A stretch of 64,000 nt of DNA from Candidatus Saccharimonadales bacterium (GCA_035457485.1 DATIBO010000006.1:94134-158133); one strand, 5' to 3'; numbered from the stretch's first letter, positions 22,482 through 48,154 are shown. Numbers and translations: made by a program. The notes: generated by a model from the sequence alone, not told the origin.

Positions 22482-22632
22482 CCCTACCTCCCGTAGTAAC
22501 GTGCAGCCTCGAGTTCACGAGGCCATAATAAAGCAAGAAAATGCACTCTTATCACTCCGCAAACTGTCAAACTATAACATAATTAATTGTTTTCTTCAAT
22601 TCATCGCTTATCTGTTATAATGTGTTCGGCGC

Positions 22633-22724
22633 GGAGAGGTGTCCGAGTGGTTGAAGGTGCCGCTCTCGAAAAGCGGTGTAGCCAGCAATGGTTACCGAGG
22701 GTTCGAATCCCTCCTTCTCCGCCA
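22633..22724 (+). tRNA. tRNA-Ser (anticodon CGA), type II with long variable arm, CCA encoded
   Basis: Acceptor GGAGAGG/CCTCTCC, anticodon stem CCGCT/AGCGG with loop CTCGAAA, T-arm GAGGG-TTCGAAT-CCCTC, 3' GCCA. Confidence 0.88.
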
Positions 22725-22784
22725 ATAGGTAGTCAGTGTAAAAGCTGGCTATTTATTTTGCCCACAAAACCGTACAATAGCTAT

Positions 22785-23816
22785 ATGGATTTTTTACGCG
22801 CCACTCTTCGCGCATTGTTTGTTGTTATAACTTCGGCCAGCTTAGCCACACTAATCAGCGTGGCGACAATGCAGGCAACGATTTTAAACCGCTCGACAGT
22901 TTTGCGTTGGATGGAGAATAGTGGAATTTATCAAAACATCGTTAACATAGCAGTGCAGCTCCAACCTGATTCAGCACCAGAGAGTCAGCAGTTTTTGGGC
23001 GAAACTACCATTCGCGATGCAATTAATCAAACTCTAGATCCAGCTTTCTTAAGAACTTCAACCGAAAAAATTATTAATAGTACTTACGATTGGTTAGAAG
23101 GCAAGAGCGAAACAATCACGTTTTCGATTCCATTAAGCGAAAAACGCGATCTTTTAAAGCAAAATTTAGCCAAGCAAATCGAACCCAAAATTTCGAGCCT
23201 TCCAACCTGTAGCTCAAATTTTAGCGGTGTAACTAGTCAGCAAGTCCAATGTATTCCTAAAAACTCCAATGCCCAAACTTATGCCGCCGATCTTGCGAGC
23301 CGAGCGGTGGATAGTTCTGACTTTTTAGTGCAGCCCCTAACCCAGCAAAATATTCAGCTGCCAACGCTCCCAGCTGTTAACGTTTTACGATTTTTGGCAA
23401 GCAATTTACAGATCATAATCTCCGGACTAGCTGTCCTGGCGGTTCTAAGCGCAACGGGTTATGTTTTGTTGAGTAAAGATAAACTTCGCGGCATTCAAGC
23501 TGTGGGTCGACGTGCTTTTTTTGGTACTTTAATTTTAGTCATTGGCGGTGGAGTTCTTTGGTATTTCTCGAACAAGCTAACTCTAAGTGCATTCGGCGAT
23601 CAAGCAATTATCACCAGCATAGTTGATCCGTTAGCACGACAAATTGCTGCAGATGTTGGAATGTGGTTATTCATTTTTAGCGGAATTGTTTTTGCAACCG
23701 GTGGTTTGATCTGGCTTGGTGCATTTTTGACAATCAAAAATCTAGAGAAAAAACTAAAAGCCGCACATGCTGGCCCGCCGAAAGATTTGCCGCCAATCGG
23801 TCCCGCTGCTATATAA
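22785..23816 (+). CDS. hypothetical polytopic membrane protein. The track start at 22587 overlaps the tRNA; ATG 22785 is preferred
   Basis: N-terminal TM, large extracytoplasmic region, three C-terminal TM helices. Confidence 0.45.
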   Translation: MDFLRATLRALFVVITSASLATLISVATMQATILNRSTVLRWMENSGIYQNIVNIAVQLQPDSAPESQQFLGETTIRDAINQTLDPAFLRTSTEKIINSTYDWLEGKSETITFSIPLSEKRDLLKQNLAKQIEPKISSLPTCSSNFSGVTSQQVQCIPKNSNAQTYAADLASRAVDSSDFLVQPLTQQNIQLPTLPAVNVLRFLASNLQIIISGLAVLAVLSATGYVLLSKDKLRGIQAVGRRAFFGTLILVIGGGVLWYFSNKLTLSAFGDQAIITSIVDPLARQIAADVGMWLFIFSGIVFATGGLIWLGAFLTIKNLEKKLKAAHAGPPKDLPPIGPAAI

Positions 23817-28370: not shown

Positions 28371-28408
28371 ACAAAAAACCGCCCAAAAAGGCGGTCTTTG
28401 TTTTTTTG
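28371..28408. terminator. bidirectional intrinsic terminator (A-run, ACCGCC-CAAAAAG-GCGGT, T-run) at 3' end of pilin array
   Basis: Hairpin flanked by AAAAAA on the left and TTTGTTTTTTT on the right; lies 10 bp downstream of the minus-strand stop at 28418. Confidence 0.6.
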
Positions 28409-28417: not shown

Positions 28418-28849
28418 TTAGGTAAGCTCGTTTGTAACAAACTGAACTGCACCAAAGGCTAGAACTGCAACAACTATACCAATGATTGCGTATAGAATTG
28501 TATTTTTGGCACTTGTGATTGCATTTTGGTCACCCTGTGAAACAGTGTAGCGAATACCACCGATGATCAACATGATTACGGCGATAGAACCGATGATGAA
28601 TATCAAAATGTTGGTGACAATTACAAAGATACCAGTTGAGCCGAACAGTTGCGTGTCGGCACTAGGGCGAACACATTCTGCGCCACCAGCAGGACCCTGA
28701 GAAATATCTGGGTTTGCAGCGTTACATGTTGTTGTAGTAGTTGGTGTTGGACCTGCGTTAACTGCAACTGGGACAACGAACGAAAGACCTAAAACCAACA
28801 ATGGCGCGATCATTAAAGTTTGTGCTGCTTTTTGCAAAAAAGATTTCAC
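28418..28849 (-). CDS. VirB2/TrbC-like T4SS pilin paralog 1 (signal peptide, Thr-rich Cys-pair head, conserved C-terminal core)
   Basis: Core GGIRYTVSQGDQNAITSAKNTILYAIIGIVVAV flanked by two hydrophobic helices; signal peptide ...PVAVNA. Confidence 0.65.
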   Translation of the reverse strand: MKSFLQKAAQTLMIAPLLVLGLSFVVPVAVNAGPTPTTTTTCNAANPDISQGPAGGAECVRPSADTQLFGSTGIFVIVTNILIFIIGSIAVIMLIIGGIRYTVSQGDQNAITSAKNTILYAIIGIVVAVLAFGAVQFVTNELT

Positions 28850-28914
28850 TTAATTTTTCTCCGATTATGCTTTCATTGTAACATTTATTACACAAAATTC
28901 TAGATAGTTTAACT

Positions 28915-29388
28915 TTAGCTGAATTGCCCGGTCACAAACCCGACTATTCCGAAGGCTGCGACAGATAAAACTACACCAACAATGGCGTACAAAATTGTAT
29001 TTTTGGCGGCGCTAATTGCATTTTGGTCGCCCTGCGCGACAGTGTAGCGAATAGCACCGATAATTACCATAATTACCGAAATCGCTCCGACGATAAAGAT
29101 TAGGATATTCGCAACTTGCTGCAAAGTTCCAGTCACGGTTCGGCCGTCTGGACTAGTGCAAGTCGTGCCATCCCAGGTTCCACCAGACCCTAAACAGGCA
29201 GATTCTTTCGCCGTTGAAGACGAAGTGGCTGCAGGAATACAAGTCGTGCCATCCCAGGTTCCACCACCTCTAACACAAGCTGCCTCGAGCGAAGGGTTCG
29301 CCGCAACCGGAGCAATCACAAACAGCGATAAAAACGCCGAAACAAAAGTTATTTTTACAATTCCAGAAAATTTAGCTAAATATCTCAT
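28915..29388 (-). CDS. VirB2/TrbC-like pilin paralog 2 (duplicated Cys-pair head motif)
   Basis: Core GAIRYTVAQGDQNAISAAKNTILYAIVGVVL; head contains GGTWDGTTC twice. Confidence 0.65.
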   Translation of the reverse strand: MRYLAKFSGIVKITFVSAFLSLFVIAPVAANPSLEAACVRGGGTWDGTTCIPAATSSSTAKESACLGSGGTWDGTTCTSPDGRTVTGTLQQVANILIFIVGAISVIMVIIGAIRYTVAQGDQNAISAAKNTILYAIVGVVLSVAAFGIVGFVTGQFS

Positions 29389-29756
29389 ATATTTGTTAAT
29401 ACAAAGTTTACTATTGCATTGGCCATTACTGCAACTATTAGCGCAACCACGGCGTATATAATTGTGTTCTTAGCAGATGTAACTTGAGCCTGATCGCCGC
29501 CGCTAACCGCATATCTAATTGAGCCGATGATTATCATCAGCACGGCAATAGCACCGACTACAAAAGTTAGGGCATTTAAGATATTGTTCCAAATACTATT
29601 AGCACCGAATAGGCTGTCATCTCCACTTGCCGCTGCACAAAGCTCGGTGTTTACTAAATCTGGATCAAGGCATGGATCGATCACCGCCGCACTAGCGGGC
29701 ACAGCAACAAGAGTTGCAATAATGCTAAGTGCTACTAAAATACTTTTTAATTTCAT
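29385..29756 (-). CDS. VirB2/TrbC-like pilin paralog 3
   Basis: Core GSIRYAVSGGDQAQVTSAKNTIIYAVVALIV; signal peptide; single Cys pair; ATGA overlap with paralog 2. Confidence 0.65.
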   Translation of the reverse strand: MKLKSILVALSIIATLVAVPASAAVIDPCLDPDLVNTELCAAASGDDSLFGANSIWNNILNALTFVVGAIAVLMIIIGSIRYAVSGGDQAQVTSAKNTIIYAVVALIVAVMANAIVNFVLTNI

Positions 29757-30028
29757 TATATTCTCCCTAAAACAAATTGAATTAAAGCTACTGCACTCGA
29801 TGAAACAATCAAGCCGATCACTGCATACAAAATTGTATTTTTTGCCTGACCGATCTCTTTTTGCTCGCCATTACTAGTTGCATAGCGAATCGCGCCAATC
29901 AAAATAAAAAGTACACAAATCCCACCAATTGCCGTAAATGTAAGCGACATCGCTGTTCCAATAACCGTATTGTCTAAAGCAACTTTGGGGATTCCGGGGA
30001 TTACTACTGTTTGAGCAAAATTCTTCAT
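29756..30028 (-). CDS. VirB2/TrbC-like pilin paralog 4 (minimal, no variable head)
   Basis: 90 aa consisting only of hydrophobic helix-core-helix: GAIRYATSNGEQKEIGQAKNTILYAVIGLIV. Confidence 0.6.
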   Translation of the reverse strand: MKNFAQTVVIPGIPKVALDNTVIGTAMSLTFTAIGGICVLFILIGAIRYATSNGEQKEIGQAKNTILYAVIGLIVSSSAVALIQFVLGRI

Positions 30029-30459
30029 GATGAGACAAAGCCCCTATATATAAACTGAGTGATTGCGATCGACGAAAGAACAATTATAAGACCAATGATT
30101 GCGTTTTTAATAGTGTCTTTCGCGGCCGACAGGTTACTTGGTTCACCTTGGCTTTTAGTATATTGAATTCCGCCCCATATCACAAAACCGATCGCAATGT
30201 AGCCAGCGAGTTTTAAGACATCGTTAAATAGGGGAATTATTATCTTCCAGATATCGCGAATCGAATTAATAACAACTGTTTGTTCGCAATCACCCTGATT
30301 GTTGCAGGTCTCAACTCTTGTCAGACAGTGATCCCAAGATTCTAAACCTAGGAATTCGAGAGGTGTGCCTTCGCAAGCCGCGAAATTAGTTAAAGGAGCG
30401 GAGGTGAAAGAAAAAATCATTCCTAAACTCAGAATGCCTTCTACGAAAAAACTGATCAT
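30025..30459 (-). CDS. VirB2/TrbC-like pilin paralog 5 (divergent core, four-Cys head)
   Basis: Core GGIQYTKSQGEPSNLSAAKDTIKNAIIGLII; head ACEGTPLEF...DHCLTRVETCNNQGDCEQT. Confidence 0.5.
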   Translation of the reverse strand: MISFFVEGILSLGMIFSFTSAPLTNFAACEGTPLEFLGLESWDHCLTRVETCNNQGDCEQTVVINSIRDIWKIIIPLFNDVLKLAGYIAIGFVIWGGIQYTKSQGEPSNLSAAKDTIKNAIIGLIIVLSSIAITQFIYRGFVSS

Positions 30460-30881
30460 CCTAAAATTCCTCCGGGGATAATAAAGTTCAAAATCGCGAA
30501 CATAAATATGAATAGCAGCAGTCCAACGCAGGCGTTAATGATCACTGTGATCGCTTGTTGCGTTTGCGAACTGTTGCCGCGGGCTGTCATATATAAAAAA
30601 CCTCCCCAAACAATTCCGCCTACAACCACAAGGCCAACTCCACCAGCAAAAAGCGCCAAAACAGCTACTAAAACTTGAACAATTGGATTGGTTTGAAATG
30701 TTGATCCATTCTCGATACAACGTTCGCCGACCAGGGCGATTGAGGTCTTAATTCCTTGCTCGCCTGAGCTCGTTGTGCACCGCAAATTCTGAGGAATCGG
30801 ATTAGCAAGTGCTGCATTAGACATTAAAAAACAGCTGAATAAAGAAACTATCGCAAACAGAATTGGCCGCTTAAAACTCAT
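30456..30881 (-). CDS. pilin-like paralog 6 (most divergent). The ORF track starts at a TTG at 30929; ATG 30881 with a signal peptide is preferred
   Basis: Signal peptide MSFKRPILFAIVSLFSCFLMSNAALA, Cys pair head, C-terminal GGFLYMTARGNSSQTQQAITVIINACVGLLL between two hydrophobic helices. Confidence 0.4.
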   Translation of the reverse strand: MSFKRPILFAIVSLFSCFLMSNAALANPIPQNLRCTTSSGEQGIKTSIALVGERCIENGSTFQTNPIVQVLVAVLALFAGGVGLVVVGGIVWGGFLYMTARGNSSQTQQAITVIINACVGLLLFIFMFAILNFIIPGGILG

Positions 30882-30950
30882 ATCCACATTGTATGCCAAA
30901 ATCGTGCGATAATCTATACGCAAATACAATAATGGCGTATTATATAAACA
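30882..30950. promoter_or_regulatory. 69-bp AT-rich divergent promoter region between pilin array and T4SS operon
   Basis: Only non-coding DNA between the two divergent transcription units; contains TATTATATAA. Confidence 0.35.
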
Positions 30951-32273
30951 ATGAGTCGGACAATTAAATTAGTAGGGCGGTTTTTGTTCTTTGTCGCAAT
31001 AACTCTCGCGGCGAACTTCACACTCCAAGCCACCTCTGCGCACGCAGAAGGCACGATTAGCGGTGGTAATTTTTGCGTAGAAGTAACATTAGGCGACGGT
31101 GAAAAAGCCTGCGCCGTAATCGAGGATGACTTGATAGAAGTTACACTCGATCCAGCCGCAGCCGGCAGCAGTCAAACTATAGATAACGGCAAAATCGATA
31201 TCACAAACGTGCCACGCGGTACCTACACAGTAACTGTCCAATTTGAGCTCACAAAAGAGCTCTGCAGCTCAGTGACTAGTATTATTGGGGATATCATTCC
31301 AATTTCACGAATTATCGACGTTATCACTGGCGGCTTTAACCCAGTAGATACGGTTCTGAGCGCCCGTCTATGTGACAATGACGGCGTTTACCGCGCAAGC
31401 AGAGTTTTTTCTAACGTAAGAGTAGAGGACGGCCAGACCACGTTTTTAATGGGAGACAATAACACAGATAACAGGGTGTTGGCACATGCCATCAGGGTTG
31501 ATCCCGAAACTGGCTTGCCCGTAATTGTCTGTGCGGGCGAAAGCAACTTATTTGTTGACTGGGTTATTTGTCCGGCGATCGAATTCACATTTAGAGCAAT
31601 AGACTTAGCAATTACCTACATTTTAGTGCCTTTTTTGAGCATTAATCCGCTCACAGTCACCACTGTTAACGATCAAGGGCAGACGGTTCAAACCGAGCTC
31701 TATCAGATCTGGGACAACGTCAGAAATGCAACCAATATTTTGTTCATTTTGGTTTTCTTTGTAATGATCTTTTGGCAGGCAATTGGTAGTGTTTATGGTG
31801 TTAAAAAAATTCTTCCGCGGCTTATTCTTATGGCAATCGCAGCAAACTTGTCGTTCTTTATTTGTCAAATAATGATCGATATTTCTAACGTTCTAGGCAT
31901 TGGAATTGCTTCATTACTAACAGCTGCCATTATCGGCGACCAGCCTGTCCTTGACCTTAGCGGAATCATTGCGCCGTTATTTGGGGCATCGGTGCCTATA
32001 CTTGTTGCACTCTTTATTATGATTATTTTCTCTGCGGTTATGATCATAATTGGTGTGCTTGTACTTATTTTCCGACAAATTGTGCTTATATTCTTAGTTC
32101 TAATTTCGCCGGTGGCTTTTGCCGCGGGGGTTTTGCCGAACACCGCCAATTTGCTAAACCAATGGTTCAATATGTTGATTCGACTAGTCTTAATGTACCC
32201 AATTTGTATGTTGATTCTTTCGGCTGCCAGAATAGCTGGTCATATCATAACTAACATAGGAGCACAGTTCTAA
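30951..32273 (+). CDS. VirB6/TrbL-like polytopic T4SS membrane protein
   Basis: Signal peptide, ~200-aa extracytoplasmic domain, then 5-6 TM helices with a long hydrophobic core; first gene of operon. Confidence 0.5.
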   Translation: MSRTIKLVGRFLFFVAITLAANFTLQATSAHAEGTISGGNFCVEVTLGDGEKACAVIEDDLIEVTLDPAAAGSSQTIDNGKIDITNVPRGTYTVTVQFELTKELCSSVTSIIGDIIPISRIIDVITGGFNPVDTVLSARLCDNDGVYRASRVFSNVRVEDGQTTFLMGDNNTDNRVLAHAIRVDPETGLPVIVCAGESNLFVDWVICPAIEFTFRAIDLAITYILVPFLSINPLTVTTVNDQGQTVQTELYQIWDNVRNATNILFILVFFVMIFWQAIGSVYGVKKILPRLILMAIAANLSFFICQIMIDISNVLGIGIASLLTAAIIGDQPVLDLSGIIAPLFGASVPILVALFIMIIFSAVMIIIGVLVLIFRQIVLIFLVLISPVAFAAGVLPNTANLLNQWFNMLIRLVLMYPICMLILSAARIAGHIITNIGAQF

Positions 32274-33532
32274 TGGATTTTATGTTTGACATACTGAATC
32301 ATTTTGCGACAGGCAACGTTATATCTGAGGTTGCACAAAGCTCGATGTTCGCTGCGGCAGGTTTTATAGTTACGGCTGCTGGAATTGGTGGGTTTGCATT
32401 TTCTTTTGGAGCCGCGGACAAAGCCACCAAAGCCATGTACCAGGCAGGGATGAGTGGAGTAAAAAGAGTTGGCAAAATCGGGGCTGGTGCTGCTAAATTT
32501 GGTGCCAAAGAAGCCGTTCGTAACTCTCGCCCAATGCAAGCTTGGCAAGAAGCCAAACGCGAAAAAGCCTTCGCAAGGAAAGGTCGTGCACAGAGAGATT
32601 ACGCAGCCGCATCTTCGAGCGACTCTCTACTGGGTCGAGCATTGCGCGCCTACACCTTTGGTGCTGGTGATAAGAACTTGGCTTTCGCGCAACAAGGTAT
32701 GGTTCGCGACATGCGTGACCGCTCGACAGAGCTTGGATCAACAATTGGCCACATGAACCCGTCAAATCTTAAAGCTCACTTATCCAGTATTGCTAGAGGT
32801 GGCGCTGGAACTGGCATGGACAGTGAGTTGAACGCAGCCGGCATAACATTCAGAGGTCACGGAGCTGCAGCTTCGTCGCTTGCAGTTATGAATCACTTAG
32901 CACAAACAGGTGATCTAAACGAAGACATCATGTCTTACTTAACCGACTCATACTCAGACAATGATAAGCAAGGCACCCCTAAACTCGAGCAAGCAAGATT
33001 GTCCTACTGGTCTGGTCAAGTTCAGGCCGCCCAGCGTGCTGCGGGTGCAAACGGCAACCCATCTATGCTAAAAAACACCGTCGATATTTCTATGGGACCT
33101 CTTGGCACATACACTGCGAGCTACAAGTCGAACGTTGGCGACACCCTAAAGAAGGTTACTGCCGAAAGCTACAAGGGTATGAGTGGCGATGGTGTGGAGT
33201 CTACTGCACGCGCCGTAATGACTCAGGCTCCGAAAGCCACACCAGGCACACCTGGCTTTGTTCCTGGCGCAGTTACATTCCCAGTAAAGACCGTGACCAT
33301 GAAAAAATACAACCCCACAACTGGGGCAACAGAAAGCTTCCCACTCACTCGTTTCGTTGACGACGGGCTACATGAGCTTGCCACAGCTTATGTCCAGGGT
33401 GAAGTTAACGGCACAAGCGCAGCCTACAAAGATCAAGGTGCCCGCGAAAAACTTAATAGCCTGCTTAACGCTAATCCGGCATTTAAAGCACAGCTTGATC
33501 AAATGGTTACTGAGCGCGAACCTCACATGTAG
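32273..33532 (+). CDS. hypothetical T4SS-associated bitopic protein
   Basis: N-terminal TM (AAAGFIVTAAGIGGFAFSF) then ~370-aa soluble domain; translationally coupled (TAATG). Confidence 0.4.
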   Translation: MDFMFDILNHFATGNVISEVAQSSMFAAAGFIVTAAGIGGFAFSFGAADKATKAMYQAGMSGVKRVGKIGAGAAKFGAKEAVRNSRPMQAWQEAKREKAFARKGRAQRDYAAASSSDSLLGRALRAYTFGAGDKNLAFAQQGMVRDMRDRSTELGSTIGHMNPSNLKAHLSSIARGGAGTGMDSELNAAGITFRGHGAAASSLAVMNHLAQTGDLNEDIMSYLTDSYSDNDKQGTPKLEQARLSYWSGQVQAAQRAAGANGNPSMLKNTVDISMGPLGTYTASYKSNVGDTLKKVTAESYKGMSGDGVESTARAVMTQAPKATPGTPGFVPGAVTFPVKTVTMKKYNPTTGATESFPLTRFVDDGLHELATAYVQGEVNGTSAAYKDQGAREKLNSLLNANPAFKAQLDQMVTEREPHM

Positions 33533-33538
33533 GAATCC

Positions 33539-34384
33539 ATGGCCACTTATAAAGTACCTCAAGATGTTGAAGCCGAAGATAAGCTACTTGGACCTTTTAG
33601 CTTTAGACAGTTTGTCTATTTAGCAATTGCTCTTGGGGCAGCAGTAATCGCTTTCTTTTTGTTCAGGGTTTTTCCGCTTTTGTTTTTAATCCCGCTACCT
33701 ATAACCATTTTCTTTGGCGCTTTGGCTTTGCCACTACGAAAAGATCAGCCAATGGAAACATACTTATTGGCCATTGTGAGATTTAATCTAAAACCAAAGC
33801 TTCGTAAGTGGGATCCAGAGGGTGTAATTAGTTATGTAGAAATAATCGCGCCAAAGTTAATGGAGAAACAGCTTACAAAAGAATACGGCGCGGATTCGGC
33901 TCAAGAACGCTTAGACTATCTTGCGCGCGTTATGGACAGTCGTGGTTGGGCTCATAAAGGTGTGGAAACAACCACAAATCCAAGCGTAACTGCAACAGTA
34001 GCGGCCGAAGCTAGATCGACAGTTGATGTCCTAGACGAAGACCAGGCGTTGTCGCGAACCTTTAAGGAGCTTATGGACCAAAAAGCAGAAGAGCAAAGGC
34101 AGGCGGCGATTGAAATGATGAAAAAAGCGCAAACCGAACCCGCTCTGGCAACTCCGGTGAATATAAACTACAACCCTTACCCAACTTCAATGCATCAAAA
34201 AGTTATTCTGCCTGCCGGACAACAAAAGCCCGCACCTGTTGCGCAAAAACCTGCGATGACACCGCCAGTATCACCTGATATAATTAGACTCGCGAACAGC
34301 AATCTGAAGGTGAGTACAATTGCACACGAAATCCAGAAGCTTGAACTTAATAAGGGTGCAGTAGTAGATATTAAACTTCATTAA
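33539..34384 (+). CDS. VirB3/PrgI-like small membrane domain with C-terminal extension
   Basis: N-terminal ~90 aa: charged lead-in then two TM helices (FVYLAIALGAAVIAFFLF / LLFLIPLPITIFFGALAL), position directly upstream of VirB4 as in many T4SS. Confidence 0.35.
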   Translation: MATYKVPQDVEAEDKLLGPFSFRQFVYLAIALGAAVIAFFLFRVFPLLFLIPLPITIFFGALALPLRKDQPMETYLLAIVRFNLKPKLRKWDPEGVISYVEIIAPKLMEKQLTKEYGADSAQERLDYLARVMDSRGWAHKGVETTTNPSVTATVAAEARSTVDVLDEDQALSRTFKELMDQKAEEQRQAAIEMMKKAQTEPALATPVNINYNPYPTSMHQKVILPAGQQKPAPVAQKPAMTPPVSPDIIRLANSNLKVSTIAHEIQKLELNKGAVVDIKLH

Positions 34385-34406
34385 AAATACAGGGAGGGCT
34401 GGTTAA

Positions 34407-35285
34407 ATGCCACCCAACAATCAACAGACAGCTAATCAACAACCGGTTAATGCAACCCTCCCACAGGGTGCTTCACCTTTAGCGGCTCTTCCGCCAACTC
34501 CGGCGGGCAACATCGTGGCAGGTGGCTCACCCCAGGTAGCAAGTACGGGTAACAAACAAAAAAATCCGAATAGCGCGCAAAACAGCTTGCTCATCTCTGA
34601 ACTTCGCGATGGAATGGCCATATTAAACGATGGCACTATGCGCGCTGTAATTGCTTGCCGTTCGATTAACTTTGATCTTATGAGCTCACGCGAACGCGAA
34701 GCAGTTGAATTTTCTTATCAGCAGTTCTTAAACTCACTTTACTTTCCAATGCAAATATTTGTTCGATCCCAAAAAGTCGACATCGGCCCGTATCTTGAAC
34801 GCTTGGGTAAAATTCGCCGCGAACAAGACAACATGCTCCTTGGTGTTTTAATGGACGATTATGTCGACTTTATTGGTATTCTTGCGCAAGAAACCAACAT
34901 TATGGAAAAGAGCTTCTTTATAATAGTGCCTTACTACCCGGGCGGCGATGTTGGAAGCGCAGTCAATACTAGTAAGAACTTTTTAGCAAACTTGTTTTCA
35001 CCGCAGACCCAGCAGCGAATCAGAATCGACGAAAAAACTTATGCAAAAGCTGTCGATGAGCTTCGCAATCGCACCGATACGGTCATAAACGGACTGCTTC
35101 AAATTGGAATCCGTGCCGTCCGATTAAACACAAAAGAGCTAGGCGAACTATACTACAATGTCTACAACCCAGACACAGCTGTGCGCGAACCACTAGGTAA
35201 GTTCGAAAACCTAACTAGTGCTGCAGTCGTTACCAAGGGCGAAGGCAAAGCTCCGCAACCACACTTAGATAAGGAGGCGATGTAA
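34407..35285 (+). CDS. VirB4 N-terminal domain encoded as separate ORF (Q/P-rich disordered lead + VirB4 N-domain)
   Basis: Segment ELRDGMAILNDGTMRAVIACRSINFDLMSSREREAVEFSYQQFLNSLYFPMQIFVRSQKVD matches the N-terminal domain pattern of Gram-positive VirB4 (TrsE/PrgJ/TcpF); SD GGGAGGG upstream. Confidence 0.5.
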   Translation: MPPNNQQTANQQPVNATLPQGASPLAALPPTPAGNIVAGGSPQVASTGNKQKNPNSAQNSLLISELRDGMAILNDGTMRAVIACRSINFDLMSSREREAVEFSYQQFLNSLYFPMQIFVRSQKVDIGPYLERLGKIRREQDNMLLGVLMDDYVDFIGILAQETNIMEKSFFIIVPYYPGGDVGSAVNTSKNFLANLFSPQTQQRIRIDEKTYAKAVDELRNRTDTVINGLLQIGIRAVRLNTKELGELYYNVYNPDTAVREPLGKFENLTSAAVVTKGEGKAPQPHLDKEAM

Positions 35286-35286
35286 T

Positions 35287-37182
35287 ATGGCATTCGGTAA
35301 AAAACCTGATCCAATTGACTTAGCCCAAGCTCAACGCTACCGCGAGCAACAAGAAATCGAGCAAGAATTTTTGCGCGGTATAACAACTCTGCGCGACATC
35401 ATCGCGCCAAGCTCACTCGAAATCCAGAGTGGCTACTTTAGGCTTGGCACAAAATACGCTCGCACACTTTACGTTTATGGCTACCCGCGTCAAATCTTTA
35501 CTGGCTGGCTAAGTCCGATCATCAATATCGACGAAGTTATAGATGTAAGCATGTTTGTTTATCCAGTTGAAAGCCAGGTAGTTTTAAACAATTTGCGCAA
35601 AAAAGTAGGCCAGCTAGAAGCCAGTATTAGCATTAACGCTGAGCGCGGTAAGGTGCGCGATCCGGGCCTACAGGCTGCTATCCAAGACGCCGAGGAACTG
35701 CGTGACCAACTGCAAGTTGGTGCTGAACGCTTTTTTAGGTTTGGCTTGTATATTACAGTTTACGGTGACAGTTTAGATGAGCTGCAGTTTGTGCAACATA
35801 AGATCGAAACAATTCTAGGTCAGCAATTAGTGTTCAGTAAGGTTGCTAGCAGTCAAATGGAGCAAGGAATGAACAGTACGATTCCGCAAATGACCGACCA
35901 GCTACAGATTCGCCACAACATGAATACGGGCGCACTTAGCACAAGTTTTCCGTTTACAAGTGCCGACCTCACCCAAGAAAAAGGTGTGCTTTATGGAATC
36001 AACATGCATAATAACGGCCTTGTGATTTTTGATCGATTCAGTTTAGAGAACGCCAACATGGTGGTGTTTGCAAAATCTGGTGCCGGTAAATCTTTTGCGG
36101 TCAAGCTAGAGGCTTTGCGTAGCTTAATGATGGGTACCGAAGTAATTATCGTAGACCCAGAAAACGAATATCAGCGACTTTGCGATGCGGTAGGCGGAAG
36201 TTATGTTAATCTAAGTTTAAACTCGACCACTCGAATAAATCCATTTGATCTACCAAAAGTAGTTGAAAGCGAAGAGGCCGAGGACGCTCTACGTGCCAAT
36301 CTAATTAACTTACACGGGCTTTTGCGACTTATGATGGGTGGCGCACAAATGTTACCTGGTGGCGTAACTTTGCCAGCGCTCAGCCCAGTAGAAGAAGCTG
36401 ATCTTGATCAAGCTCTGATCGATACCTATGCCCGAGCAGGAATCACGAGCGACCCATTAACTCATACCGGGCAGCCGCCAACAATCAACGATCTTTACGA
36501 GACGCTATTACATATGGGCGGGAGTGGTCCGCAACTTGCACAACGGTTGCGAAAATATACAACTGGAACATTTGCCGGTATCTTTAGTCAGCAATCAAAT
36601 GTGGACATCAACAATAAAATGGTTGTTTTTAGCATCCGAGACCTAGAAGACGAGCTTCGCCCGGTTGCAATGTATATCGTTTTGAGCTACATCTGGAATA
36701 AAACACGCGCCGAGCGACGCAAGCGTTTATTAGTAGTTGATGAGGCTTGGCAGCTAATGAAATATGAAGACTCGGCAAACTTCTTATTCAGCCTCGCTAA
36801 GCGCGCAAGAAAATACTTTTTGGGTATGACCACCATAACTCAGGACGTTGAAGACTTTATGACCAGTAAAATGGGTCGTGCAATTGTGGCGAATGCCAGT
36901 ATGCAAATTCTACTTAAACAGTCCACTTCGGCAGTTGACGTTTTGGCGGATGTGTTTAAGCTAACCGAAGAAGAAAAAAAGCGTTTGGCTCAATTCCCGG
37001 TAGGGCAGGGGTTGTTCTTTGCCGGACCAAATCATGTGCACTTACAGATTATTGCTAGCCCAACTGAGACCGGCTTGATTACAACCAATCCTCAGCAGCT
37101 TCAACAGTTACAACAGCTTTATGCACAGCAACCTAACCCACAGCAACCAATACCAGGTCAAGGAGTAGAAGGTGCCCTATAA
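35287..37182 (+). CDS. virB4: VirB4/TraE-family T4SS ATPase (C-terminal ATPase portion)
   Basis: Walker A AKSGAGKSFAV, Walker B LLVVDEAWQLM, motif ITQDVEDF; SD AAGGAGG 11 nt upstream of ATG; starts 1 nt after stop of upstream N-domain ORF, different frame. Confidence 0.8.
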   Translation: MAFGKKPDPIDLAQAQRYREQQEIEQEFLRGITTLRDIIAPSSLEIQSGYFRLGTKYARTLYVYGYPRQIFTGWLSPIINIDEVIDVSMFVYPVESQVVLNNLRKKVGQLEASISINAERGKVRDPGLQAAIQDAEELRDQLQVGAERFFRFGLYITVYGDSLDELQFVQHKIETILGQQLVFSKVASSQMEQGMNSTIPQMTDQLQIRHNMNTGALSTSFPFTSADLTQEKGVLYGINMHNNGLVIFDRFSLENANMVVFAKSGAGKSFAVKLEALRSLMMGTEVIIVDPENEYQRLCDAVGGSYVNLSLNSTTRINPFDLPKVVESEEAEDALRANLINLHGLLRLMMGGAQMLPGGVTLPALSPVEEADLDQALIDTYARAGITSDPLTHTGQPPTINDLYETLLHMGGSGPQLAQRLRKYTTGTFAGIFSQQSNVDINNKMVVFSIRDLEDELRPVAMYIVLSYIWNKTRAERRKRLLVVDEAWQLMKYEDSANFLFSLAKRARKYFLGMTTITQDVEDFMTSKMGRAIVANASMQILLKQSTSAVDVLADVFKLTEEEKKRLAQFPVGQGLFFAGPNHVHLQIIASPTETGLITTNPQQLQQLQQLYAQQPNPQQPIPGQGVEGAL

Positions 37183-39820
37183 CGTTCCAACGGGAAACGA
37201 ACCAGACTACGAACCGGATTGGCGTTCAAGATTAAATAACTTTGAGGGCCAGCCACAAATACCTGAGGTCCAAGAGCAGGGCCGGCTTTCGCGTGCTGGT
37301 GAACGCATCGGTGACGAAGTAAGCTCACGAGCAGGCGATCTTGCTAGAAAAGGTATCGAAAAAGGCTTTAAAAAAGGCGCTGAACAAGGTGCTAGGACCG
37401 CTGCACAAGCTGGTGGCGAGGCCCTGGCTAACACGGCCGGATCGGCAATTGCTAGCGGGGCTACAGCCGGAACAGCCGAAACCGCGGGCGCATTAGGAGC
37501 TGCTGGTGCCGCCGGTGCTGCAGGTGCCGCGGGCACTGCGGGAACAGCGGGAGCAGCAGGAACGTTGGCTGCGGCGGAAGCGGGGATAGCAGCGGCGGGC
37601 GCCGCATCAGCACCCGAGACAATGGGAGCTGGTTTAGTTGTTGCTGGTGGAGCAATGGCCACTACCGCTGCAGCCGCAGCTACCCCAGTAGCCGTTAAAG
37701 CTGCAACTGGGGTAGATGTTTCGCCGAGTGGAGTTATAAAAGCAGCCACTGGCTCAAAAAGATCACTTTTAGAGACAATAAAAAGCCATAAAGTCATAAT
37801 TATAGCCGTAGCCGTTTTATCGCCACTATTACTTATTTTCGGAGTAGTGTTCTTGGCGTCGCCGTTTAAAGGCGATATCGCAACAAAATCTGTGGCAGAC
37901 AAAGCCTTTTCACCCATAAAAACAATTGTAGAGCTAAGAACTCGCACAATCTTAGCCGGCTATGTAATCGGCGGATCTAAAGCTAGCATTGAGGTCGGGT
38001 TGCCGCAAGCTGGCGGTAAAGCCGGTCAGCTATACACCGCCATGCGCGATTTAGGTTTCGAAGAAGTTATAAAAGATAAGTATTTGCTCGCATTTGAAAG
38101 AGGCAACGAAGCCGGAACCGTACGCGTTGTAAGCCGTGGAATTGGCCTGGGCGACGCAAACACAAACCTTGAGGCATTGGCACTTTTAAACAAAAGCACT
38201 GGGGTGAGAGGTGTTATTCAAAACGAAATGCACTCTTGGGATTGGGCGCAGCATAGCAAAATTGCACAACCAGCCAAGGCTCTTTATCAAAACCCACGAT
38301 TAAACATTCCTGGTGCCGACGAAGCTCAAAGCGGCGAACAGCTAAGCGAAGTTGCCAAATATCGCGTTTCGACCACAACTCAACCGACGGTCACAAACGT
38401 TGGCAGCGCAATGGGCTGTATGCTCGGCACAGGAGTTTGCAACCAAGAGAACGTTCAGCCCGACATAACCGCAAACTCAACCTTACAAGAGAACGAATCG
38501 AGTTCACTAGTAACCGCAACTCAAAAAGCCTTCAATGATAATCTTGAAACAATAAGCCCCGAAACCAACTACGAAGCTCCAACTTTACGCGACAAATCAA
38601 GGAGCAACCTAACAACCCAGCTAACACAAGCTAGTTTGCCACTTTTTGGTTGGCTGGATGTAGGAACAGTAACAGATTACGGCAGCACAGACCCTGCTTA
38701 CAAGGATCTCCCTGTGAATATGCGTCGCCAACAAGCCGGAAGCCTTTTCTTGATGTCGTGGATAGGGACCAGCCAGAGCACAGCCGAGGAAGTTAACTAC
38801 AAATCGGCCGGCATCATGGCAAAAAACTTTGTTGATATGGAAGACTCGCAAGCGTACAACTATATATCCTACGACGACACCAGCAGGGGTAAGCCGCTCG
38901 AAACTTACCAAAAAGTTAACAGCGCCGCCGAAAATCCAATGCAGACCTTCAAGGATTCGTGGTTTACCGAAAACTCCGAACTACAAAATACTTTTGGAAT
39001 TTTTGCCGCCTGGAATGCAATCCGAGACTTGCCGATCTTCGGTTCGATAATTGAACAGTTGGTTACGACAATGGTAAACAACCCGCTAATCAACATCGGT
39101 GGGGAGATAATTGCCAACTCTCCTTTAGTACTTTTACTAAAAAACTTCGGTCCGCAACCCGTTCAAGATTTACTAACATTCTTAACCGAACGCCCTTTAA
39201 GCGAAGTTATTGGCACGAGCTTCGGATTGTCTTCGGATATGTTAATTAACGAATGTGATATGTCTTTAAGGTCATTCAACTTCTTAAACTGCATGGTATC
39301 GGGCGCACAAGACCTATACGTAACCACCTGCGAACAAAACTTTGGTTGTGGCAACTTAAGCGAGCAGGAACTGCAAGAACTCTACGCCTACCGCGCCCAG
39401 GCCGATAAAGAAAACTTAGCCGCATTGCCATGGCAAGAAAGAATGTTCAGTTTAAATACCCCAGGTTCATTGGCGAGTGTAGCAGTTTTGCGATCACCAA
39501 TGCCTATAGATTCAACACAAAACATGGCCTCTTTTGCCAAGGGAATTGCCCGAGCAGTAGCCAGAATTCCAGACAACCTAGCGACAATTTTTGCAGGCAA
39601 AGCACTGGCTGCGGCCAACGATCCAAACAGTATTAGCGGCATAAATAACAATCAGGGCATTCCTCTGGGCACATTGCAAAACACCCAACTTTCGCCGCAA
39701 ATGCTACAAAACGACGGAACCTGCCCCGAAAAACAAGAAGGCGTAGAGGATGTTTGCTGGGCCGATAATGCCACAATCGACGGACTGCTTACTAAATACG
39801 TAACTTACAAATACTTATGA
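37172..39820 (+). CDS. large bitopic protein: Ala/Gly-rich cytoplasmic N-terminus (Gly-X-Y-like repeats), single TM, ~650-aa extracytoplasmic domain (T4SS-associated surface component). GTG start
   Basis: SD AAGGAG 6 nt before GTG; low-complexity (GCN)n DNA 37440..37700; TM IIIAVAVLSPLLLIFGVVFLA; no recognised fold in ectodomain. Confidence 0.5.
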   Translation: MPYNVPTGNEPDYEPDWRSRLNNFEGQPQIPEVQEQGRLSRAGERIGDEVSSRAGDLARKGIEKGFKKGAEQGARTAAQAGGEALANTAGSAIASGATAGTAETAGALGAAGAAGAAGAAGTAGTAGAAGTLAAAEAGIAAAGAASAPETMGAGLVVAGGAMATTAAAAATPVAVKAATGVDVSPSGVIKAATGSKRSLLETIKSHKVIIIAVAVLSPLLLIFGVVFLASPFKGDIATKSVADKAFSPIKTIVELRTRTILAGYVIGGSKASIEVGLPQAGGKAGQLYTAMRDLGFEEVIKDKYLLAFERGNEAGTVRVVSRGIGLGDANTNLEALALLNKSTGVRGVIQNEMHSWDWAQHSKIAQPAKALYQNPRLNIPGADEAQSGEQLSEVAKYRVSTTTQPTVTNVGSAMGCMLGTGVCNQENVQPDITANSTLQENESSSLVTATQKAFNDNLETISPETNYEAPTLRDKSRSNLTTQLTQASLPLFGWLDVGTVTDYGSTDPAYKDLPVNMRRQQAGSLFLMSWIGTSQSTAEEVNYKSAGIMAKNFVDMEDSQAYNYISYDDTSRGKPLETYQKVNSAAENPMQTFKDSWFTENSELQNTFGIFAAWNAIRDLPIFGSIIEQLVTTMVNNPLINIGGEIIANSPLVLLLKNFGPQPVQDLLTFLTERPLSEVIGTSFGLSSDMLINECDMSLRSFNFLNCMVSGAQDLYVTTCEQNFGCGNLSEQELQELYAYRAQADKENLAALPWQERMFSLNTPGSLASVAVLRSPMPIDSTQNMASFAKGIARAVARIPDNLATIFAGKALAAANDPNSISGINNNQGIPLGTLQNTQLSPQMLQNDGTCPEKQEGVEDVCWADNATIDGLLTKYVTYKYL

Positions 39821-41094
39821 ACAACTTAGCTAAACGATTTATCCTAATTTTACTGGCGGCAACACTACTTATCGCGAACGGTGCCAGCGAAGTCAGTGCT
39901 TATAACACTCCTCAAACTGTAGAGAGGGGAGGGCCGGCTTTTGAGGAAGGTTCGTGCAGCGCCACGCCGCAAACATCGGAACTTGAAGGCTTCAAGCTAC
40001 CGGCAACCAAAGGTTATATGGGCAATGAAGATCCAGTAGACGAAAACGGCAATCTTACAACCACCGGAGAGGGCATGGCTTACGGTAAGTTTGCAAAACT
40101 TGGCCAAAATTACCGTGACTTCTACATCACAATGCGGTGGACTACACATGAATGGTTCTGGGACGGCAGCGCCAGAGTGGCCGATCAGGCTCAAATTGCT
40201 TGGCTAAATGAAGCCCCACGAAAAGTTCTAGTAACCAATCCAAGATCAAACAGAAGTATTATTGCCGTTGTTATGGAATCTGGCCCAGCGCCATGGACGG
40301 GCGTAGACACTGAGCGAAATAACGATCCTAAGCAAGGCTGGCAACAGCCACAATTAGGAACACCTGCAGAGTATGGCGGTCGCGTTTCCGGGTTCCCGCC
40401 AGTGGCGGTCGAAGCTTTGCTCGCTCAGCAACGAACGGGTGGTCAAACTAATGGTGATGAGCTGCTTTATTCCTGGGCACCAGACCAAAACGCTGAGCCC
40501 GGACCTACGGACTTATCGGTTCAAAACTCGGACAGTACGGCAATTTGTGCTCCAACAGGTTTAGGTGTAAGCCCAGACGGTTTCGTATTCCCACTAATCA
40601 CAACAAAAACAGAACTCAAAAAAGGTGGCTGGAACCCTAATTGTGTTAACAAAGTTTCATCTATGGGTGCGCTAGGAACAGTCGTGAGAATACAAGGCCT
40701 CTGTCACCACGATTACTTAGCAGCAGACATTCTTGATCCAGTTGGAACTAAAGTTGTTGCCGTACGACCCGGCAGAGTTATTAGGGCGAACTCAGAGATT
40801 AGCTGCTTTAGCCCAAGTGTAACAATATTTAGCGACCCAGCTCTTGGCGGCGACGGTAACACATACTACACAACCCATATGGGGCAGCAAGGCAGGCCTA
40901 CCGAAGACACAATTGTGAATGCGGGCGATATTATTGGCGAAATTGGCGACCCGCACGGTTGCTTCCCACCACACTTGCACATAGACGTCAGTCCGATCCA
41001 AACGGGATTCCCGAGAAATAGCGGTGGAACACACGGCCCTTTACTCGATCCTCAGCCGGCATTAAAAGCTTCTTACCAAACATTACCGGAGTAA
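39817..41094 (+). CDS. secreted M23-family metallopeptidase (peptidoglycan hydrolase)
   Basis: Signal peptide; C-terminal M23 motifs HHDYLAADI and HLHIDV with TYYTTHMGQ between them; ATGA overlap with upstream. Confidence 0.65.
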   Translation: MNNLAKRFILILLAATLLIANGASEVSAYNTPQTVERGGPAFEEGSCSATPQTSELEGFKLPATKGYMGNEDPVDENGNLTTTGEGMAYGKFAKLGQNYRDFYITMRWTTHEWFWDGSARVADQAQIAWLNEAPRKVLVTNPRSNRSIIAVVMESGPAPWTGVDTERNNDPKQGWQQPQLGTPAEYGGRVSGFPPVAVEALLAQQRTGGQTNGDELLYSWAPDQNAEPGPTDLSVQNSDSTAICAPTGLGVSPDGFVFPLITTKTELKKGGWNPNCVNKVSSMGALGTVVRIQGLCHHDYLAADILDPVGTKVVAVRPGRVIRANSEISCFSPSVTIFSDPALGGDGNTYYTTHMGQQGRPTEDTIVNAGDIIGEIGDPHGCFPPHLHIDVSPIQTGFPRNSGGTHGPLLDPQPALKASYQTLPE

Positions 41095-41097
41095 AAA

Positions 41098-42300
41098 ATG
41101 AGAAGAAAAATAATAATTTTCGTCATCGTAGCAGTGGTCCTTGTAGCAATCGGTTTTTTCGCATATAACTTTTTCACCACAGAACAAGTGAACATAAAAA
41201 GCAATAGCCAAAACGCCAAGGTATCTATCTACACATTGCAAAACCAGGTTGTTGACTCTAAAAACGCGCCATACAGCACCCGACTTAAGCCAGGTATATA
41301 CTCGGTAGTTGTTACCGATAACCAAAAAGAGACGCGATCGATTTTTACGTTAAAACAAGGTACCCCTGTAGACCTAACACTCGATTTAGTTGATGTAAAG
41401 TCTCCAAAAAAAATAGCACCCTATTCCTCAAAATACATTTTTGCAGATGAAAACTTTTTGAATTTTATACGCAAGGACGTTAATCAATTAGATAGATTAA
41501 CTTTTGGCGAGAAGTACCTTAAAGAGTTGTCTCAGGGATCATACTCTCAAGCATATTGGGCAAACGCCGATCAAGCCATATTAACTGATACAGCTAATAA
41601 AAGCCACTATTACGACTTTGGGACAATTTCTCCTCTAGGCTATAAAATCACTAACCCAGGTACGATCTCGTTTTTAGGTGATTCACTGGCTTACATAGAA
41701 CAAAAGGTCGTCTACATAAGGCCTACAATCACAGCGGCTCCTGTGGTCGAAGTTCCTGTTAGATTCCTTCAACCGCAATTATCACTTGGTCCAAATAATC
41801 AATTTGTCGTCTTTGAAACAGGCGTGTTTGTGGATGAGACTGAAGGCGAAGAAGGGCAGGCGCAATCCGAATTGAGTAACGCAACTCCCGAAATTTATTC
41901 CGGAAACGAAAGGCTTCAAAAGCAAAGTGATGCGTTGAAAAACTACGTAATCGACGGGGCGACTTGGTCGCCCGATGGCCAGAAACTCGCCTTTAGTGCA
42001 GGCGATGGTATTTATATAATGGATATAAATACATCTTCGATTAGACAACTCTACCTAAGTTATACAACTCATCCACAAAGTATAAAGTGGCTCGACGAAC
42101 AAACATTGATATATTTTCTAGACCAAGGAATATGGAAAATTACGCTAAACGAAACGCCAACATGGAATCTGTTGGCGAAAGTGGAGGGCAGCTTGGGTTG
42201 GAGTGCGCCGCTTTCACTATCTCCCTCAAAAAAGGAGATCTATTACTCATCAGATGAACTACAATCCAGTAATGATGCAGTATACCAGATCGATTTATAA
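41098..42300 (+). CDS. membrane-anchored TolB-like beta-propeller (PD40 repeat) protein
   Basis: N-terminal TM IIIFVIVAVVLVAIGFFAY; PD40-like WSPDGQKLAFSAGDGIYIMD. Confidence 0.5.
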   Translation: MRRKIIIFVIVAVVLVAIGFFAYNFFTTEQVNIKSNSQNAKVSIYTLQNQVVDSKNAPYSTRLKPGIYSVVVTDNQKETRSIFTLKQGTPVDLTLDLVDVKSPKKIAPYSSKYIFADENFLNFIRKDVNQLDRLTFGEKYLKELSQGSYSQAYWANADQAILTDTANKSHYYDFGTISPLGYKITNPGTISFLGDSLAYIEQKVVYIRPTITAAPVVEVPVRFLQPQLSLGPNNQFVVFETGVFVDETEGEEGQAQSELSNATPEIYSGNERLQKQSDALKNYVIDGATWSPDGQKLAFSAGDGIYIMDINTSSIRQLYLSYTTHPQSIKWLDEQTLIYFLDQGIWKITLNETPTWNLLAKVEGSLGWSAPLSLSPSKKEIYYSSDELQSSNDAVYQIDL

Positions 42301-43965: not shown

Positions 43966-45039
43966 TTAAGCTTGCAACTTTTCGGTGCTAATTATTTTAT
44001 GTTCTGCCAAAAAACTTTTCTCAACGACATCAGCATCCGTGGTAGTTATAAACGTTTGGTAAGTCTTGGTAATATCCGTCAAAGCTCTACGGCGAGTGCT
44101 ATCGAGCTCCGAAAACACGTCGTCGAGCAATAGTATTGGCGGATTTTCGTTTTGCTTGGCTAAAAGCTTGAGTTCAATTATTTTAAGCGCTAAAAGCATG
44201 CTACGAACCTCACCACGCGACGCAGCAGCCGCAGCGGGCTTGTTATTGATTTTTACCGCAAAATCGTCACGGTGGGGTCCAAACGACGTAAAACCGCGAT
44301 GTAAGTCGCTTGCCGCATTGCGCGACAACGCATTCAGCAGGTTTGCTTGATAATTTTCGGCAGGTAGTGAACTTTTGTATTCAATTTGTAAATCAGTTTT
44401 TACGCCCGCGATCGAAGAATAAACTTCTCCAAAGACTTTATTTAAATCGTTAATCAGCGATACGCGTCGCTCTACAATCACAGCTCCCAAATCAGCTAGG
44501 CGAACATCCCATGCAAAAAGTTGATCTTCGACCTGGCTCAAGCCGAATTTATTTTTAAGCAACGAGTTGCGCTGTTGTAAAACCCGTTCGTATTGATGTT
44601 TTGTCCAGGTAAAATCAGGGTGAATTCGCGCAAGCAGGTTGTCTAAAAAATCACGGCGCCCAGTAGGCGAGGAGCGCAAAAGCCGCAAATGATCTGGCTC
44701 AAACAAAACTACGGGTAATTTGTACTGGTGGGTTAGTCGAGCTTTTTTAGATCCATCAATATCAAACTGTTTTTCGAGTTTTTCAGGCTGAACTTTGTAA
44801 ACAATTGTGCGTTTTTGATCGTTATATACTCCTTCGATTTTCAACCAAGGCTCTCCATGCCTAATCATATCTCGATCCACACCCCTAAAGGAACTTCCAG
44901 CCGAAAGCACATAAAGCGCCTCTAGTAGATTGGTTTTTCCACTACCATTTGGTCCAACAATAACAGTTACGCCCGGCGAAAACTCGACGTCGTAGTTTGT
45001 GTATGATCTAAAATTGTGCAGCGAAACCGAACCAAACAT
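43966..45039 (-). CDS. recF: DNA replication and repair protein RecF
   Basis: Walker A GPNGSGKTNLLEA, SMC-like signature, D-loop LLLDDVFSELD. Confidence 0.9.
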   Translation of the reverse strand: MFGSVSLHNFRSYTNYDVEFSPGVTVIVGPNGSGKTNLLEALYVLSAGSSFRGVDRDMIRHGEPWLKIEGVYNDQKRTIVYKVQPEKLEKQFDIDGSKKARLTHQYKLPVVLFEPDHLRLLRSSPTGRRDFLDNLLARIHPDFTWTKHQYERVLQQRNSLLKNKFGLSQVEDQLFAWDVRLADLGAVIVERRVSLINDLNKVFGEVYSSIAGVKTDLQIEYKSSLPAENYQANLLNALSRNAASDLHRGFTSFGPHRDDFAVKINNKPAAAAASRGEVRSMLLALKIIELKLLAKQNENPPILLLDDVFSELDSTRRRALTDITKTYQTFITTTDADVVEKSFLAEHKIISTEKLQA

Positions 45040-48138: not shown

Positions 48139-48154
48139 TTGTTAAACTAAATAT

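Follow-up and report, generated by a model that had tools for sequence, protein, structure and literature searches.

The 64,000-nucleotide (nt) window analyzed here, from the genome of a Candidatus Saccharimonadales (TM7) bacterium (GCA_035457485.1, DATIBO010000006.1:94134-158133), encodes six small membrane proteins in tandem beside the genes of a monoderm-type type IV secretion system (T4SS). An earlier note, made from the sequence alone, had described them as VirB2-like pilin paralogs. All six open reading frames (ORFs) that it placed between 28418 and 30929 are present and intact on the minus strand (Table 1). We number them P1 to P6, from the distal to the promoter-proximal end of the array; the products are 143, 157, 123, 90, 144 and 157 amino acids (aa) long, respectively. 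The maximal ORF of P6 reaches a TTG at 30929, but the alternative ATG at 30881 is likely the true start, because a normal signal peptide results from it and the same start was called by the gene caller in a close relative (L081).

The genes are closely packed. ATGA overlaps are found at the P6/P5 (30456), P5/P4 (30025) and P3/P2 (29385) junctions, and P4 and P3 share the A of a TAATG at 29756. Translational coupling, previously proposed for the whole array, is thus evident at these four junctions; a 65-nt spacer (28850-28914) sets P1 apart from P2, so tight coupling is limited to five genes. No upstream extension of the P4 ORF is possible. P4 therefore lacks a signal peptide as well as the N-terminal head region of the other pilins, in line with its original description as headless.

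The six proteins share a C-terminal core, G-(G/A/S)-I-R-Y...A-K-N-T-I, flanked by two hydrophobic stretches, as seen in a MAFFT alignment of the six (the core motifs quoted in the earlier note were correct). Core identity ranges from 64% (P1/P2) down to 18% (P1/P6), and overall identity of P2-P6 to P1 is 17-46%. Hydropathy profiles, which were read by a crude rule in place of a dedicated predictor for the calling of signal peptides, show an N-terminal hydrophobic segment and two C-terminal segments in P1, P2, P3 and P6. The threshold catches only the second core helix of P5, whose N-terminal segment scores weakly (1.73), and P4 shows nothing but the two helices. The AlphaFold2 (AF2) model of P3 (mean predicted local distance difference test score, pLDDT, 81.8) is a helical hairpin made of residues 55-84 and 89-122, with pLDDT of 88-97 across residues 61-120 and 77 at each hairpin end. 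The loop between the helices carries the near-invariant R and K of IRY...AKNT. Based on the hydropathy profile and the P3 model, we predict that each product inserts in the membrane as a helical hairpin, with the R/K loop cytoplasmic and both termini, along with a disulfide-stabilised head, facing outward.

P1 to P5 match PF18895 (T4SS_pilin, gathering score 26.6 bits) above the gathering score, with 34-52 bits and E-values of 2e-8 to 8e-14. P6 is sub-threshold (21.1 bits, E = 3.4e-4). The significance of the shared motif against a family hidden Markov model (HMM), a question raised in the earlier note, is thus established for P1-P5 with PF18895; P6 falls just short of the gathering score, and that of PF04956 (TrbC/VirB2, 27.9 bits) is passed by no protein of the window. 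PF18895 is matched by all 64 of the aligned homologues, PF04956 by 31 of them (E <= 1e-3, best 2.3e-9). Given that the window proteins fall below the PF04956 threshold but these 31 homologues match it, the link to classical VirB2/TrbC pilins is, by profile comparison, one at the superfamily level, made through intermediates. The PF18895 matches, the PF04956 matches of the homologues and the position beside PrgI/VirB3, VirB4 and VirB6-like genes all agree with the assignment to VirB2-like pilins. The NCBI proteins that are 100% identical to P3 and P5, the two genes that were looked up, are named 'pilin [Candidatus Saccharimonadales bacterium]'. Nothing relevant came back from PDB sequences searched with the six-paralog and the 64-sequence profiles. 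Two other pilin classes were considered and rejected: a class III signal peptide with the G/F(M)TLIE prepilin peptidase motif of type IV pilins and type II secretion system (T2SS) pseudopilins is absent from all six proteins, and the LPXTG motif of sortase-assembled Gram-positive pilins occurs in 0/6.

For comparison, 80 virB4 loci with 10-kb flanks, from metagenome-assembled genomes of Saccharibacteria/Saccharimonadales with VirB4 77-89% identical to that of the window, were searched by an HMM built from the six window cores. Arrays were found wherever the flank reaches, mostly of 4-7 genes where the whole array is covered; the linkage to virB4 is seen in 32 of the 80 loci, which are those whose flank extends to the array. 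Most related arrays complete in the flank have the same order: a P6-type gene, a P5-type gene, a short gene without signal peptide, then one to four P3/P2/P1-like genes. In some, no P6-type gene is detected, or P5 and P4 are fused.

The cores of the window are most similar to the genes at the same position in three of these loci (L001, L002 and L004), as the core identity matrix shows. Identity to these positional orthologues is 70-80% for P1, 63-84% for P3, 36-65% for P6, 48-54% for P5 and 49-50% for P4, and the same-position similarities are at least as high as the similarity to other paralogs in those loci. P2 is the weak case: it is 54-59% identical to its positional orthologue, which is less than its 64% identity to P1 of the window, and the orthologue is not top-scoring in L001 and L004. 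By position and similarity, the six paralogs are best described as old, position-specific orthogroups and not as degenerating copies. The positional orthology and the recurring order argue that P5 and P6 are specialised, in contrast to the earlier suggestion that they are progressively degenerate. Their cores are 87% and 83% identical, respectively, to those of L081, a closer relative in which the same six genes lie on a 2.9-kb Logan contig. The view that the duplications are old is supported by the same-position similarity of the cores. Recent amplification or gene conversion, as in pilE/pilS-type cassettes or recently amplified VirB2 paralogs, was rejected: all copies are complete, orthology follows position, and at the DNA level the strongest repeat shared by two paralogs reaches 73% identity (179 nt).

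A short gene of ~90-114 aa without a signal peptide occupies the P4 position in most related arrays. In five loci (Table 1), and in the database proteins P0130 and P0140, a P5-type and a headless P4-type pilin are encoded as a single protein of 227-271 aa, in which ~20 aa link the two pilin domains and the P4 type makes up the second half. The arrays with such a fusion have no separate short gene. The topology of the fusions is consistent with the predicted hairpin, as both of its ends face outward. By the Rosetta-stone argument, the fusions suggest that P5 and P4 are physical partners, which would account for the 'headless' copy.

The gene nearest the divergent T4SS operon also forms a distinct class. 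In the window and 23 related loci it ends in (L/I)(N/Q)(F/W/Y)(L/I)(I/V)PGG(L/I/V)(F/I/L); the 23 loci include five flanking array copies whose best match is P5 or P1, and L048, the exception, in which the P6-type gene ends in ...LIPMAIF. The PGG[ILV]F C-terminus is limited to this promoter-proximal type, and no P6-type gene was detected in the arrays of L060, L062 and L069. The length of the P6-type head ranges from ~40 aa to ~490 aa. The longest belongs to a 562-aa protein (L080, 977-2665), in which a Cys-rich extracellular region of ~490 aa sits on a P6-type core ending in ...LVPGGIF; it looks like a pilin-anchored adhesin.

The heads of P1, P2, P3, P5 and P6 contain 2, 4, 2, 4 and 2 cysteines, respectively (P4 has 0), so the Cys pairs reported earlier are present in every head. 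The number of head cysteines is even and non-zero in 105 of 119 pilins with a signal peptide, and 97 of 146 complete pilin ORFs have exactly two. Cysteine makes up 5.5% of head residues vs 0.2% of core residues, and the spacing of the Cys loops is conserved within each orthogroup. As judged from these counts, cysteine pairs are a family trait. The P2 head contains a direct repeat (29148-29185 and 29229-29266; 38 nt, 87% identical, 81 nt apart) that encodes two C-x5-GTWDGTTC loops. Its orthologues in L081, L001, L002 and L004 have a single loop, and the duplication is evidently lineage-specific. The P5 head has an 8-aa insertion relative to L081 that adds two cysteines.

Against L081, the cores are 80-88% identical (87% for P1) and the N-terminal regions 39-76%. 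The ratio of nonsynonymous to synonymous substitution (dN/dS), given for regions with unsaturated dS, is 0.04-0.09 for cores (P6, P3 and P1; the P5 core is saturated) and 0.10-0.27 for N-terminal regions; against L001 and L002 it is unusable, as synonymous sites are saturated. This comparison of core and head had been suggested in the earlier note, which called the heads hypervariable. That term is overstated: the heads evolve faster than the cores, and they do so under purifying selection.

We predict that the P2-P1 spacer is an internal promoter and 5' untranslated region of P1. In related loci the gap within the array has a median of 68 nt at the last junction vs -1 nt at the others. The 28 intra-array spacers of at least 40 nt in related loci include 24 with the extended -10 motif TGnTAnAnn, where shuffled sequences give 2.6 on average (maximum 9 in 1000 shuffles), and most of the 28 also have a Shine-Dalgarno sequence. 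A generic sigma-70 scan found sites no more numerous than in shuffled sequence and missed the extended -10, which surfaced only in the comparison of spacers. Over the 58 nt 5' of the P1 start there are 2 differences from L081, whereas neighbouring synonymous sites differ at 46-86%. Among the close relatives compared, no core is better conserved than that of P1. Since it has its own conserved extended -10 element and is followed by a terminator, P1 is likely the major subunit. The single GC-rich hairpin at 28378-28395, also found by scanning, has T runs on both sides. Located where P1 and hsp20 converge, it resembles a bidirectional terminator. At the other end of the array, ~80% of the columns of the 69-nt region at 30882-30950 are conserved with L081, and the region may hold a promoter. 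The TACAAT just before the P6 ATG would fit a leaderless or very-short-leader transcript.

The T4SS operon runs divergently from P6, on the plus strand at 30951-42300. Its first gene was named VirB6-like by position; the product has no Pfam match above threshold and is only 25-36% identical to relatives. The equivalent gene by position in Southlakia epibionticum ML1, SEML1_0013, was matched to TrbL/VirB6 by fold (Wang 2023; PMC10633639). Lacking among the window ORFs scanned against Pfam are type IV coupling protein (T4CP) and relaxase domains, and among the operon genes scanned there is no VirB5 family match. The M23 peptidase-domain protein is possibly a cell-wall hydrolase of the T4SS, and its gene has no counterpart downstream of virB4 in related loci. 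When the 10 kb that follow virB4 in 11 related genomes were searched by tblastn, almost no counterpart emerged for the genes of the 419-aa, 882-aa, M23 and beta-propeller-like proteins; the exceptions, both weak, are the 882-aa protein (33% in L001) and the propeller-like protein (24% in L004). The accessory part of the operon is, on this comparison, highly variable despite the conservation of VirB4 in the same genomes.

Table 1. Pilin genes, control elements and T4SS genes of the window, with P5-P4 fusion genes of related loci.
Feature	Position	Strand	Description
P1	28418-28849	-	Distal pilin; GTG start; one Cys loop C42-C59 and core; PF18895 34.4 bits
P2	28915-29388	-	Pilin; head of two Cys-loop modules C-x5-GTWDGTTC; PF18895 40.1 bits
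P3	29385-29756	-	Pilin; signal peptide, one Cys loop C29-C40, LFG..IWN motif, core; PF18895 51.9 bits, PF04956 23.6 bits
P4	29756-30028	-	90-aa pilin core; no signal peptide, no head; PF18895 39.5 bits
P5	30025-30459	-	Pilin; four-Cys head with conserved motif C..FLGL.SWD.C; PF18895 38.6 bits
P6	30456-30881	-	Promoter-proximal pilin; signal peptide, one-Cys-pair head, two-helix core, C-terminal motif IIPGGILG; PF18895 21.1 bits
P2-P1 spacer	28850-28914	-	Extended -10 TGTTACAAT at 28883-28875; Shine-Dalgarno GGAG at 28862-28859
Intrinsic terminator	28372-28395	-	After P1; ACCGCC-loop-GGCGGT then T run; common to convergent hsp20
Divergent control region	30882-30950	.	69 nt between P6 and VirB6-like gene; TACAAT 6 nt upstream of P6 ATG
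VirB6-like multi-pass membrane protein	30951-32273	+	First operon gene; named by position; hydrophobic C-terminal half
419-aa protein	32273-33532	+	T4SS operon gene
PrgI family (VirB3-like)	33539-34384	+	PF12666 54.8 bits
292-aa protein		+	T4SS operon gene listed between the PrgI/VirB3-family gene and VirB4
VirB4-type ATPase	35287-37182	+	TraG P-loop domain 107 bits, plus AAA_10 and DUF87
882-aa protein	37172-39820	+	T4SS operon gene
M23 peptidase-domain protein	39817-41094	+	PF01551 29.6 bits
Beta-propeller-like protein	41098-42300	+	Weak sub-threshold Pfam hints only
P5-P4 fusion genes (related loci)	L033 2971-3672; L038 2692-3408; L060 3369-4073; L062 3512-4195; L069 3144-3959		P5-type and headless P4-type pilin in one polypeptide

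Just past the operon, recF, dnaN and dnaA are encoded on the minus strand (43966-47758), and the cumulative GC skew has its minimum at ~44-46 kb. The coincidence of this minimum with recF-dnaN-dnaA places the pilin/T4SS locus near the replication origin, a proximity that is reported in many Patescibacteria. The opposite flank of the array carries hsp20, a ComF-like gene and tRNA-Ser(TGA). Between recF and the T4SS operon, a 520-aa minus-strand ORF (42352-43914) without a Pfam match lies in a GC-rich block (51% vs ~45% around it). Past dnaA (48000-64000) the GC content falls to 40-42%. Of the window's four tRNA genes, three encode tRNA-Ser. One of these, tRNA-Ser(CGA) at 22633-22724, is overlapped on the same strand by a 409-aa ORF with a TTG start (22587-23816) and no Pfam match; given the overlap, the real start of this ORF is further downstream.

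The window closely resembles the published array of S. epibionticum ML1, SEML1_0014-0019, which encodes pilins of 132, 185, 103, 126, 127 and 138 aa (Wang et al., 2023, Cell; PMC10633639, Table S1). Both arrays have six genes whose sizes follow one pattern, the third gene being short (~100 aa) and overlapping the second by 4 nt, and the spacer before the last gene is 83 nt in ML1 and 65 nt in the window. In both, the array is divergent from a VirB6-like gene and followed by hsp20, a comF-like gene (ComFC, K02242, in ML1) and tRNA-Ser. The window is in fact the mirror image of the ML1 map in the order dnaA-dnaN-recF-T4SS-pilins-hsp20-comF-like-tRNA-Ser. It differs in being from the environmental genome of an uncultured organism, in the duplicated P2 Cys loop and in its T4SS accessory genes. 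By the annotation tables, on which this likeness rests in place of sequence comparison, the six genes are orthologous, gene for gene, to an essential array: all six ML1 pilins are classed GD/ES/ES by transposon sequencing (Tn-seq), with only 11-15 input insertions per pilin gene (PMC10633639, Table S1). The saccharibacterial T4SS is essential, its cluster has no relaxase and no recognisable T4CP, and it is the only monoderm system that encodes pilins. Given the match to ML1, the array is a correct rediscovery of a known system, not a new one, and the window is one more example of it.

Such arrays are widespread. Selected passages of Quinonero-Coronel et al. (2025, Microb Genom; PMC12102498) describe 441 arrays of 2-11 tandem PF18895/PF04956 genes near virB4 in Patescibacteria, with the greatest abundance in Saccharimonadia and Microgenomatia. 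Identity inside an array is low (mean 25%, maximum 54%), as is also the case in the window. They present the genes as variable paralogs and suggest host adaptation; positional orthogroups, the P5-P4 fusion, the PGG[ILV]F class and the internal promoter are not mentioned in these passages. The details added here (orthogroups, fusions, P6 class and internal promoter) are incremental.

Two better-known kinds of pili have features in common with the array. The VirB2/TrbC/TraA pilins of the T-pilus and F-pilus are likewise small, have a signal peptide and two hydrophobic helices with a conserved basic residue in the short loop, and are encoded beside virB3, virB4 and virB6 homologues; the related Pfam models cross-match. 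However, classical VirB2 systems combine one major pilin with a separate VirB5 tip protein in a diderm envelope, whereas the window has six paralogs with N-terminal Cys-loop heads, no VirB5 family match among the operon genes, and a monoderm-type machine. Type IV pili and T2SS pseudopili follow the same logic of paralogs with a shared hydrophobic assembly core and differing exposed domains, in which minor pilins are co-transcribed and the major pilin, separately and highly expressed, forms the shaft. They are nevertheless an unrelated family, with a single N-terminal helix in place of the hairpin core and a different assembly ATPase.

The locus is probably the VirB2-like pilin array of a chromosomal, origin-proximal T4SS that builds a heteromeric tube of specialised subunits. 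Homology, synteny, positional orthology, the fusions, the conserved spacer motif and purifying selection are shown by the sequence comparisons; from these we infer filament formation, stoichiometry and the roles of the individual subunits as follows. The T4SS would assemble the six pilins into a single tube, with one role per subunit, as opposed to interchangeable homopolymers. In the T-pilus both VirB2 termini are on the outer face and the essential loop Arg lines the lumen; with this arrangement the Cys-loop heads would decorate the outer surface of the tube. P1-type pilins, perhaps with P2 and P3, would form the shaft, with P1 transcribed from its internal promoter and the most abundant subunit. 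P5 and the headless P4 may be a pair that serves as an adaptor. P6-type pilins, with their variable and at times very large head, could be the low-copy terminal or host-contacting subunit. The major/minor pilin set raised as one option in the earlier note is the reading favoured by this evidence.

Several observations weigh against it. No Patescibacterium has been seen to carry a filament made of array proteins. None of the window proteins reaches the PF04956 threshold (the best, P3, has E = 6.2e-5, P5 has 10.6 bits, and the others have no match). The hhalign comparison of the 64-sequence family profile with A. tumefaciens VirB2 is not significant (probability 1.3%; over residues 1-120 the VirB2 sequence used agreed at 100% with virB2 genes annotated on plasmids), and fold searches do not tell the pilin hairpin apart from helical hairpins of unrelated proteins. 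The distal copy number, one to four depending on the genome, leaves room for redundancy among shaft-type copies. The TGnTAnAnn motif was defined after the spacers were seen, so its significance is somewhat inflated, and the Tn-seq essentiality of small operon genes can reflect polar effects.

Bartonella and Anaplasma have VirB2 paralogs for which an alternative-pilin repertoire has been proposed, and the passages noted above in Quinonero-Coronel et al. (PMC12102498) put forward the same for Patescibacteria. The six genes would then encode interchangeable pilins, used per host strain or to escape host defences, much like the alternative tips also envisaged in the earlier note. The much faster divergence of heads than of cores relative to L081, the shifts of head architecture within lineages (the P2 loop duplication and the Cys-containing P5 insertion) and the varying distal copy number are all compatible with a repertoire. 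It is difficult to reconcile with one-to-one positional orthology, which persists across genomes where the pilins are only 30-60% identical, with purifying selection on the heads, or with the published essentiality of each S. epibionticum ML1 copy. Also lacking are recent duplications, conversion tracts (the 73% repeat being the best match between paralogs) and truncated or silent cassettes. Moreover, five of the genes are translationally coupled and thus made together, and two types are fused in some genomes. We regard interchangeable pilins as quite improbable.

Another explanation, which we consider unlikely, is that the six proteins are parts of a membrane- or wall-spanning T4SS channel, such as a short stalk or the lining of the translocon, with no pilus ever built outside the cell. 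A precedent exists in some Gram-negative systems, where substrate transfer depends on VirB2 whether or not pili are produced. Monoderm T4SSs are generally without pili, cryo-electron tomography (cryo-ET) of N. lyticus identified no T4SS pilus (both filaments seen were assigned to type IV pili), and six essential, stoichiometrically coupled subunits suit a defined complex. On the other hand, secreted, Cys-paired and fast-diverging heads, one of them with ~490 residues, fit exposure to the environment or host better than burial. The separately promoted distal gene suggests that one subunit is needed in large excess, and a tube of the right diameter projects ~70 nm from the membrane of Mycosynbacter amalyticus. 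Finally, the ORFs could be unrelated small hydrophobic proteins, pseudogenes or chance ORFs without a T4SS link, and the lack of a pilin-specific PDB sequence or fold match is in keeping with this. Conservation effectively refutes the idea, including the pseudogene alternative that the earlier note had allowed for: Pfam E-values reach 8e-14, dozens of genomes carry the genes intact and in colinear order, core dN/dS is 0.04-0.09, the linkage to virB4 is consistent, and the S. epibionticum ML1 orthologues are essential.

If a heteromeric tube of specialised subunits is formed, it may correspond to a structure seen by cryo-ET in the Saccharibacterium M. amalyticus, in which a 'lance' 8.98 nm wide and ~70 nm long has a barb at its tip and an 8.6-nm conduit extends into the host. 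Known VirB2-family pili are 7.6-8.7 nm wide, a match in width that is suggestive only. We raise as a tentative possibility that the six pilins build a lance of this type (~9 nm wide, 60-70 nm long) and the host-penetrating conduit with its tip barb. P1-type pilins, with or without P2 and P3, would then be the shaft, the P5-P4 pair an adaptor layer, and the large-headed, PGG[ILV]F-type P6 the barb that engages the host envelope.

The comparative details turn the idea of variable pilin paralogs into specific hypotheses, open to testing in two tractable species, S. epibionticum and N. lyticus. These are the existence of six non-redundant subunit classes, a P5-P4 pair, a distal subunit made in excess from an internal promoter, and a proximal class with a host-facing head. 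The array also nominates candidate genes for the lance and conduit seen by cryo-ET. If this proves true, it would be the first heteromeric VirB2-family tube of defined length, and the feeding channel of an epibiotic bacterium of the Candidate Phyla Radiation (CPR).

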